Source: Escherichia coli
GTDB lineage: Bacteria > Pseudomonadota > Gammaproteobacteria > Enterobacterales > Enterobacteriaceae
DNA length: 60,030 nucleotides
Strand: one strand, 5' to 3'
Assembly (NCBI RefSeq): GCF_003334785.1
Contig: NZ_QOWV01000021.1
Shown piece after piece: positions 56,622 through 57,543 of this stretch; the first letter of the stretch is position 1, and each line of letters opens with the position of its first letter. The notes beneath the pieces are model-generated. The model was not told the origin of the DNA and made no database searches. It saw only the letters and a list, made by a program, of their open reading frames with translations. Made by a program: the position numbers and the translations under genes.

Positions 56622-57259
56622 GTGTCGAATCCTTATCCAAAACAAGAGGTAACTCTCATGCTTCATACTGCCAATCCCGTCATCAAACACAAAGCCGGTT
56701 TGCTCAATCTGGCTGAAGAACTCAGCAACGTATCAAAAGCCTGTAAAATCATGGGCGTTTCGCGTGATACGTTTTATCGTTACCGCGAACTGGTCGCTGA
56801 AGGCGGTGTGGATGCGCAGATTAATCGTAGTCGCCGCGCTCCTAACCTTAAGAACCGTACCGATGAGGCAACTGAACAGGCTGTTGTTGATTACGCCGTC
56901 GCTTTCCCGACACATGGTCAGCACCGGGCCAGCAACGAGCTGCGTAAACAGGGGGTTTTTATCTCCGACAGTGGTGTCCGTTCTGTCTGGTTACTCCATA
57001 ACCTTGAGAATCTCAAAAGACGATACTGAACAAATTTTATCAGGTGACGTTCCGTAAAAAGTTGTATGGAGTTCTCGATGCAGTCGGCGCGACTATCAGT
57101 ACCCCCGCTGAACCCTGGACTATCGGGCCGCCGTACTGGGGCATGTCACCCTGGCGTGCCGCTGGTTTTCCGCTAATGGTTTATTTCCTCTTTCTTTCCC
57201 GGCAAGAATTTATTTTAATCCGGAAGGATTATTTATTTTCAGATAGGGACTCACATTAA
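56622..57259 (+). mobile_element. ylbG: truncated IS transposase remnant: N-terminal helix-turn-helix fragment (56622..57029) plus short out-of-frame continuation (57044..57259)
   Basis: 135 aa ORF with HTH segment (CKIMGVSRDTFYRYRE) but no DDE catalytic domain; no terminal inverted repeats found by eye. Confidence 0.6.
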
Positions 57260-57543
57260 ACACGTAACATTTTAATTAATGCATGGCTGAATATGTATTA
57301 CACAATGTCAGATATCGTAAAAGACCAGTGCAATTCTATGTAAACTCTCTGACTGTTCATTTTATTTGTTGTTTCAGGGTCGGAACTCACCCTCAATAAA
57401 CAACTGAATACGAGTAGATATTCATCGTCTGAGCTATATGGCTTTACACAATAGCCGACATGTCTTTTCTCAGTCAGGAATTTTACTTTTCCTCACTACG
57501 AAGTTGACGACTTCGATATGGGATAGACTCTTAATTCAAGCAA

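Follow-up and report, generated by a model that had tools for sequence, protein, structure and literature searches.

The segment 56556..57082 of the analyzed window, a 60,030-nucleotide stretch of Escherichia coli DNA (contig NZ_QOWV01000021.1), is very probably a dead copy, truncated twice, of a 1201-bp insertion sequence (IS) of the IS481 family, carrying ylbG and shaped by the deletion history proposed below. ylbG itself is an already known and annotated pseudogene, and its state is one of ordinary genome decay. The present description goes into more detail than the existing labels, covering the intact left terminal inverted repeat (IRL), a 463-bp internal deletion, a mosaic of two subtypes (A and B) of the element, and the fusion of the IS to codon 32 of an Rhs reading frame. 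The following parts of the remnant were identified:

56556..57082, plus strand: the IS remnant overall, with 57082 as the last IS-derived base.
56556..56581, plus strand: IRL, TGTATTAGTCGCGACTTGATCTGACA, intact.
56556..57022, plus strand: IS positions 1-467 (left end, 5' leader, and codons 1-122), closest to subtype A.
56593..56663, plus strand: leader hairpin, with arms at 56593..56608 and 56648..56663.
56658..57029, plus strand: the ylbG open reading frame (ORF), 123 aa and a stop codon (57027..57029), corresponding to the N-terminal third of a transposase with helix-turn-helix (HTH) domains only.
57014..57022, plus strand: 9-bp imperfect microhomology (CAAAAGACG, compared with IS positions 459-467 and 931-939) that marks the internal deletion junction.
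57023..57082, plus strand: fragment of the transposase C-terminal region (..ILNKFYQVTFRKKLYGVLDA), IS positions 940-999, about residues 277-299 of the intact protein.

The parent element was defined as 1201 bp by comparing copies in five different flanks. These flanks, together with the 7-bp target duplications at two intact copies (TTTAATG in L015 and ACTGACT in L012), fix the ends of the IS. The terminal repeats of the element are imperfect and 26 bp long, with 21 of 26 bases matching between the left and right repeats. Intact copies are present in E. coli and E. albertii, on plasmids and chromosomes (e.g., full-length copies in NZ_CP117662.1, NZ_OY856300.1, and NZ_CP148401.1), and full-length copies elsewhere in the genome are rare in E. 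coli (77 of 5426 complete genomes). They encode 346-aa proteins deposited as 'IS481 family transposases', which are 92% identical to the ylbG ORF (tblastn, plasmids). The intact transposases were assigned to the IS481 family by scores of 293 and 287 bits against the NCBIfam model NF033577, for which the curated cut-off is 224 bits, and Pfam identified HTH domains (residues 11-111), an rve domain (162-267), and an rve_3 domain (256-326). Two subtypes of the element were compared, A (reference L008) and B (reference L012), and the omega value between intact A and B was 0.03-0.04. The names given to ylbG in public records vary, including 'putative DNA-binding transcriptional regulator', 'HTH domain-containing protein', 'IS481 family transposase', and 'ISSod13'; the last was rejected as an identity, since it is a label given by the depositor. 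Additionally, seven places matching the IS481-like element were found in NZ_CP148401.1, from a chicken isolate (strain Z1323CEC0019), among them one complete copy that lies at the 3' end of nanQ (L015 1501..2701) and has a 7-bp duplication. This suggests that the element has been active recently in E. coli.

The IRL of the window is identical to that of L008, L012, L015, and L016 and differs at one base from that of L017, all of these copies lying in different flanks. The initial annotation had reported no intact inverted repeats, which needs correction, as the left repeat is intact and identical to those of full-length copies and only the right repeat is missing. IS positions 1-467 are identical to the intact 1201-bp IS of L008 at 448 of 467 positions (96%) without gaps in blastn, compared with 86% identity to subtype B (L012). 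The leader hairpin, also present in intact IS copies, has arms of 16 nt that are 88% complementary, and its right arm overlaps both the ribosome-binding site and the start codon (ATG 56658); the region 56556..56675 has a folding energy of -34.8 kcal/mol (z = -2.8).

The internal deletion covers IS positions 468-930 (463 bp) and removes residues 123-276 out of frame, and both blastn segments overlap at the microhomology. Because the rve domain of the intact protein lies at residues 162-267, the whole rve/DDE core has gone, and no DDE (rve/integrase-core) domain was found in the ORF by Pfam, which detected HTH domains only. The second IS segment is out of frame with ylbG and closest to subtype B, and its length can be quoted as 60-69 bp depending on whether the junction microhomology is counted. 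Over the longer version (57014..57082, IS positions 931-999), it is identical to subtype A at 56 of 69 positions (81%) and to subtype B at 65 of 69 (94%). In blastn, nothing in the window matched the right 202 bp of the element (IS positions 1000-1201), and the right inverted repeat had no match anywhere in the window at up to 6 mismatches, the IRL itself aside. A single IS end survives in the window, so there is no target duplication to show there. With the DDE core and the right end gone, the remnant cannot transpose, in agreement with the earlier view that it lacks a DDE domain and is unlikely to be mobile.

The two surviving segments differ in their closest subtype, which points to a mosaic parent or to recombination between copies. 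IS positions 1-467 show 19 differences from subtype A and 68 from subtype B, and IS positions 931-999 show 13 of 69 and 4 of 69, respectively. The divergence of the two segments from subtype A differs by Fisher's test (p = 4e-5), with the mosaic signal based on a 69-bp segment and on 4 versus 13 mismatches. Either the parent would have been a mosaic IS, or the apparent internal deletion would be a recombination between two diverged IS copies.

Residues 1-122 of ylbG correspond to residues 1-122 of the 346-aa transposase, and its three C-terminal residues (RRY) and stop codon come from the reading frame shifted by the internal deletion. The 123-aa product from the ATG at 56658 is the exact sequence of the entry named YLBG_ECOLI and is identical to YlbG of K-12. 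In the RefSeq/PGAP annotation, taken from a strain 100% identical across 56400..57800, the gene is labeled 'ylbG, helix-turn-helix domain-containing protein, pseudo, missing C-terminus'. Pfam identified HTH_29 (3.7e-20) along with HTH_28, HTH_23, and HTH_32, and the IS481 model NF033577 matched over profile positions 2-112 of 284 (E value of 2.8e-25, 89.4 bits), below its curated cut-off. These results indicate that the ylbG remnant is derived from an IS481 member and is not itself a complete member. They bear out the initial reading of a transposase remnant containing only the HTH part, to which the 96% identity over 467 bp to the intact IS, well above any chance match, adds, and they supply the family assignment and the 26-bp terminal repeat that had been proposed as a check. 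The true start is almost certainly the ATG at 56658 (MLHT...), as judged from all intact transposases and from PGAP; the GTG at 56622 falls within the 5' leader of the IS.

The window carries allA, allS, and mnmH (selU, 55448..56542, plus strand); the remnant comes after mnmH and is followed by genes of the RhsD element on the minus strand, as the initial annotation had described in placing it between selU and the orphan immunity/toxin genes. The gene assignments were confirmed by the RefSeq annotation of the strain with 100% identity across 56400..57800. The features surrounding the remnant are as follows:

56543..56555, no strand: core spacer, 13 bp between the mnmH stop codon (56540..56542) and the outer end of the IS.
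57177..57083, minus strand: ylbI, an Rhs N-terminal remnant of 32 codons that reads I-SGKPAARQGDMPQYGGPIVQGSAGVLIVAPT, from translation and alignments.
57178..57408, minus strand: upstream leader of the lost rhs gene, 231 bp, including the ribosome-binding site AAAGAGGAAATAAACC.
57409..57543, minus strand: AT-rich spacer immediately after the ybbD stop codon, GC 0.36-0.38.
57544..58034, minus strand: ybbD.
58015..58725, minus strand: orphan Rhs-CT toxin gene.
58725..59093, minus strand: ybbC.
59133 onward, minus strand: 3' end of rhsD.

The 13 bp at 56543..56555 may be the last stretch that is still core DNA. Homology with the island-free loci L005 and L006 is clear to about 56551, and that with L006 (...GGTATT) extends by eye perhaps to 56555. 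As core homology ends at about 56551-56555 and the IS starts at 56556, the IS end forms the present mnmH-side edge of the RhsD island, which agrees with the boundary between core genes and island proposed earlier. In island-free E. coli, mnmH runs directly to ybbP, and at the ybbP side, the island replaces a REP-containing spacer, with no insertion accompanied by a duplication. The mnmH-ybbP slot is hypervariable in E. coli. The RhsD island occupies it in about half of the genomes, and other variants include an empty slot with a REP-containing spacer (L005), an insert of approximately 570 bp with a dinQ-like type I toxin (L006), and a module of an Hcp-toxin ('tssD', 668 aa) and three DUF2931 genes with its junction within the 3' end of mnmH (L013 and L014). 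On the island side, a frameshift divides ybbD, presumed to provide immunity to the orphan Rhs-CT, into ORFs of 86 aa and 65 aa, which match positions 1-85 and 99-163 of NF011298, an intact family model of 163 aa.

ylbI is fused directly to the IS fragment, and its start codon has been mutated from ATG to ATT. It carries the Rhs N-terminal motif MSGKPAARQGD..YGGPIVQGSAG..GAPTG for 32 codons, with no continuation into a YD-repeat core, and PGAP places a partial pseudogene at this position. These features indicate that ylbI is a remnant, not a gene. Its nucleotide identity is 79% to the start of rhsD, 81% to the start of another Rhs gene, and 86% to the start of an RhsE-type gene in L018, where the homologous Rhs ORF continues for at least 1.19 kb, up to an ISAs1 element. 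The leader and ylbI form a single homology block, as 57408..57083 (minus strand) matches L018 1258..1586 at 86% over 331 columns, and 57226..57408 is likewise 86% identical to the spacer at the RhsE-type locus L010. The same block of a spacer plus an Rhs start was observed in the RhsE-type elements of L018 (NZ_ABACVG020000005.1, 1..3043) and L010 (7001..7185). There, it comes after a pair consisting of a toxin and a 150-aa protein, and ISAs1 (H-rpt) elements truncate or follow it. The RhsD/E subfamily thus repeatedly shows a toxin/immunity pair with a second rhs start downstream of it, and in all three cases observed, an IS adjoins this start.

The IS/Rhs fusion joins IS position 999 to Rhs codon 32 at 57082/57083. 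Its placement is uncertain by about 5 bp, given that GTCGG at 57083..57087 recurs 5 bp further into the IS. A GTCGG microhomology as the basis of the fusion was rejected, because it would need an extra 5-bp deletion. Since the fusion lies at an internal IS position, it represents a deletion scar and not a transposition junction. The suggestion that an ancient IS insertion or deletion may have truncated the distal end of the orphan module needs refinement: the truncated gene was a second rhs gene, of which 32 codons (ylbI) and the leader survive, and not the orphan toxin/immunity module. The AT-rich non-coding stretch described for this interval likewise holds for only a part of it: GC is 0.34-0.38 only in about 57200..57543, and 57023..57082 and 57083..57177 are the transposase fragment and the Rhs remnant, respectively. 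Regarding transcription signals in the spacer, an RpoD-holoenzyme SELEX site has been listed for ylbI (Shimada et al. 2014, PMC3946193). This site, TCGTCA-19-TAAAAT, was located at 57510..57480 (minus strand) as a unique pattern match in the window, and a sigma-70 consensus scan found no promoter-like site. A terminator-like hairpin, GGCATGTCACCCTGGCGTGCC then GCTGGTTTTC, is present at 57140..57169 (plus strand), inside ylbI on the opposite strand; such hairpins are at chance level (1 found versus 1.1 expected).

The junction was compared across strains using the 5426 complete E. coli genomes, of which 2709, about half, contain at least 80% of 56400..57800 as a single piece. Fifteen sampled records of these 2709 were 98.2-100% identical to the window. 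A chimeric query composed of the mnmH 3' end and the deleted DDE segment, representing the intact IS state at the site, gave joined matches in 0 of 5426 genomes, and no genome in this collection retains an intermediate state of the two deletions. It follows from the uniform arrangement and the lack of an intact IS at the site that the remnant arose before this island form spread in E. coli. A further chimeric query, made of the spacer, ylbI, and the continuation of another Rhs, was used to search for a full second rhs gene downstream of ybbD. It gave two records at a coverage of at least 80%, neither of which was valid: FT130 was an artifact of a large rhsD deletion, and L018 was an RhsE-type contig, homologous but from a different locus. 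In FT130 (L019 8001..9700), most of rhsD through ybbD has been lost, and the spacer, ylbI, and ylbG are kept. In FDN-11 (L004 5259..7516), an IS3 element stands in place of the region from the 3' end of ylbG through ybbD.

These results are consistent with the following history, in which the order and nature of both deletion events are inferred only. An IS481-like element would have inserted in the mnmH-ybbP spacer, 13 bp past mnmH. An illegitimate deletion, not mediated by the transposase, would then have joined the interior of the IS to codon 32 of a second rhs gene, probably RhsE-like and oriented towards mnmH, removing the right end of the IS, any remaining core spacer, and all but 32 of the rhs codons. 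Finally, the internal deletion, or a recombination of two diverged IS copies (A and B), would have inactivated the transposase.

We considered whether ylbG could instead have been domesticated as a stand-alone HTH protein, which would either repress incoming IS481-like elements in trans by binding their inverted repeats or regulate the neighboring Rhs genes. In its K-12-type allele, ylbG has an uninterrupted 123-aa ORF with the full DNA-binding region (all four HTH domains); the gene retains the native IRL, leader, and ribosome-binding site and is carried by about half of E. coli, in which the full-length IS is rare. However, the substitution pattern argues against maintenance. The coding part of ylbG has accumulated 10 nonsynonymous and 4 synonymous changes relative to subtype A, its closest intact IS, giving an omega of 0.76 (derived from just 14 substitutions), compared with 0.04 between intact ISs. 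Moreover, a frameshift allele of 132 aa, with the lesion in a G5T5 run, is no less widespread than the intact one (each in at least 1000 contigs), and other alleles have further lesions, including double frameshifts. The high omega and the common frameshift allele point to neutral decay rather than a maintained regulator, and the 123-aa HTH product, if made, would be evolving neutrally. In addition, ylbG is no more conserved than the surrounding non-coding DNA of the same island, and the adjoining ybbD-ylbG spacer is in routine use as a neutral landing pad in MG1655. By a crude count, 16 of the 32 listed chromosomes with a full-length IS show a candidate second match, in line with the base rate of ylbG (~50%) and giving no sign of exclusion. 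The initial annotation would have been overturned by a full-length regulator conserved with intact ends, but the closest complete homologues of ylbG are the 346-aa IS481 transposases, and its short database homologues are a scatter of variously truncated fragments of 115-216 aa. No stand-alone regulators of similar size under purifying selection outside a transposase were found among the database homologues, and a literature search on ylbG gave only incidental mentions. Domestication is thus very unlikely.

The other alternative is that the RhsD island, in whole or in its distal part, was brought to the site by the IS481-like element through composite or one-ended transposition, so that the IRL/core junction would be the original transposition junction. 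The intact outer end of the IRL does abut core DNA a few bases past the end of the empty-site homology, and in other strains, the same slot contains an Hcp-toxin module, a dinQ-like insert, or nothing. Nevertheless, this junction is equally expected if the IS simply inserted into the core spacer, and the internal position of the IS/Rhs fusion marks a scar and not an IS terminus. Searches of the ybbP end of the island, of rhsD..ybbD, and of the rest of the 60-kb window found no further IS481-like sequence, and the ybbP side shows replacement of the REP spacer rather than insertion with a duplication. Delivery of the orphan module by the IS, which had been raised at the outset, is therefore highly improbable, and a dead IS481-family copy that decayed in place is the preferred reading.

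A scan of 56300..58100 against Rfam gave only a sub-threshold match to psRNA2 (RF02349) and no other family in this interval, and an intact copy of the IS gave a similar match (31-33 bits versus a gathering score of 65). The matches, at 56484..56655 (minus strand) of the window and at L008 2818..2998, are antisense to the left end of the IS, and the alignment is limited to model positions of about 1-110, spanning the inverted repeat and the leader hairpin. The match in the window is explained by the IS left end, and the Rfam psRNA2 family may have been seeded on an IS481-type end.

The significance of these findings beyond a tidier annotation is small. ylbG, often labeled 'putative DNA-binding transcriptional regulator', corresponds to the dead left third of an IS481-family element, and ylbI to what is left of a second rhs gene, RhsE-like, after its loss in a deletion associated with the IS. 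This could be useful for counting regulators and pseudogenes, for users of the ybbD-ylbG spacer as a landing pad, and for the history of Rhs elements, and it also flags the likeness of psRNA2 to the antisense strand of an IS481-type end.

Compared with the intact 1201-bp element, the window copy is colinear at 96% over the left inverted repeat, leader, hairpin, and first 122 codons and matches over a further 69 bp, and it differs in lacking residues 123-276, the last 202 bp, and the right inverted repeat. With respect to K-12, the locus is the same, comprising ylbG (b0502) and its neighbors ylbI, ybbD, and ylbH in the RhsD element; the gene order mnmH-ylbG-ylbI-ybbD-ylbH-ybbC-rhsD matches, with no biological difference. 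InsA of IS1 and OrfA of IS911 are N-terminal transposase fragments that inhibit transposition in trans. ylbG resembles them in encoding an HTH-only product that would recognize the element's own inverted repeat, whereas InsA and OrfA are programmed products of active elements and the ylbG fragment is the product of a deletion. The intact ORF of the K-12-type allele, with its native leader and ribosome-binding site, makes expression of the HTH fragment possible. If expressed and bound to incoming IS481-like ends, YlbG would dampen this IS family in trans from a fixed chromosomal locus in the half of E. coli carrying the RhsD island, a role that we regard as most improbable; as a lesser alternative, the retained activity would be a psRNA2-like antisense transcript of the IS left end. 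Finally, in RhsB and RhsE, H-rpt/ISAs1-type elements provide another case of an IS-like sequence within the distal end of an Rhs element. They belong to an unrelated family (ISAs1 versus IS481) and, unlike the remnant in the window, their copies are often intact.
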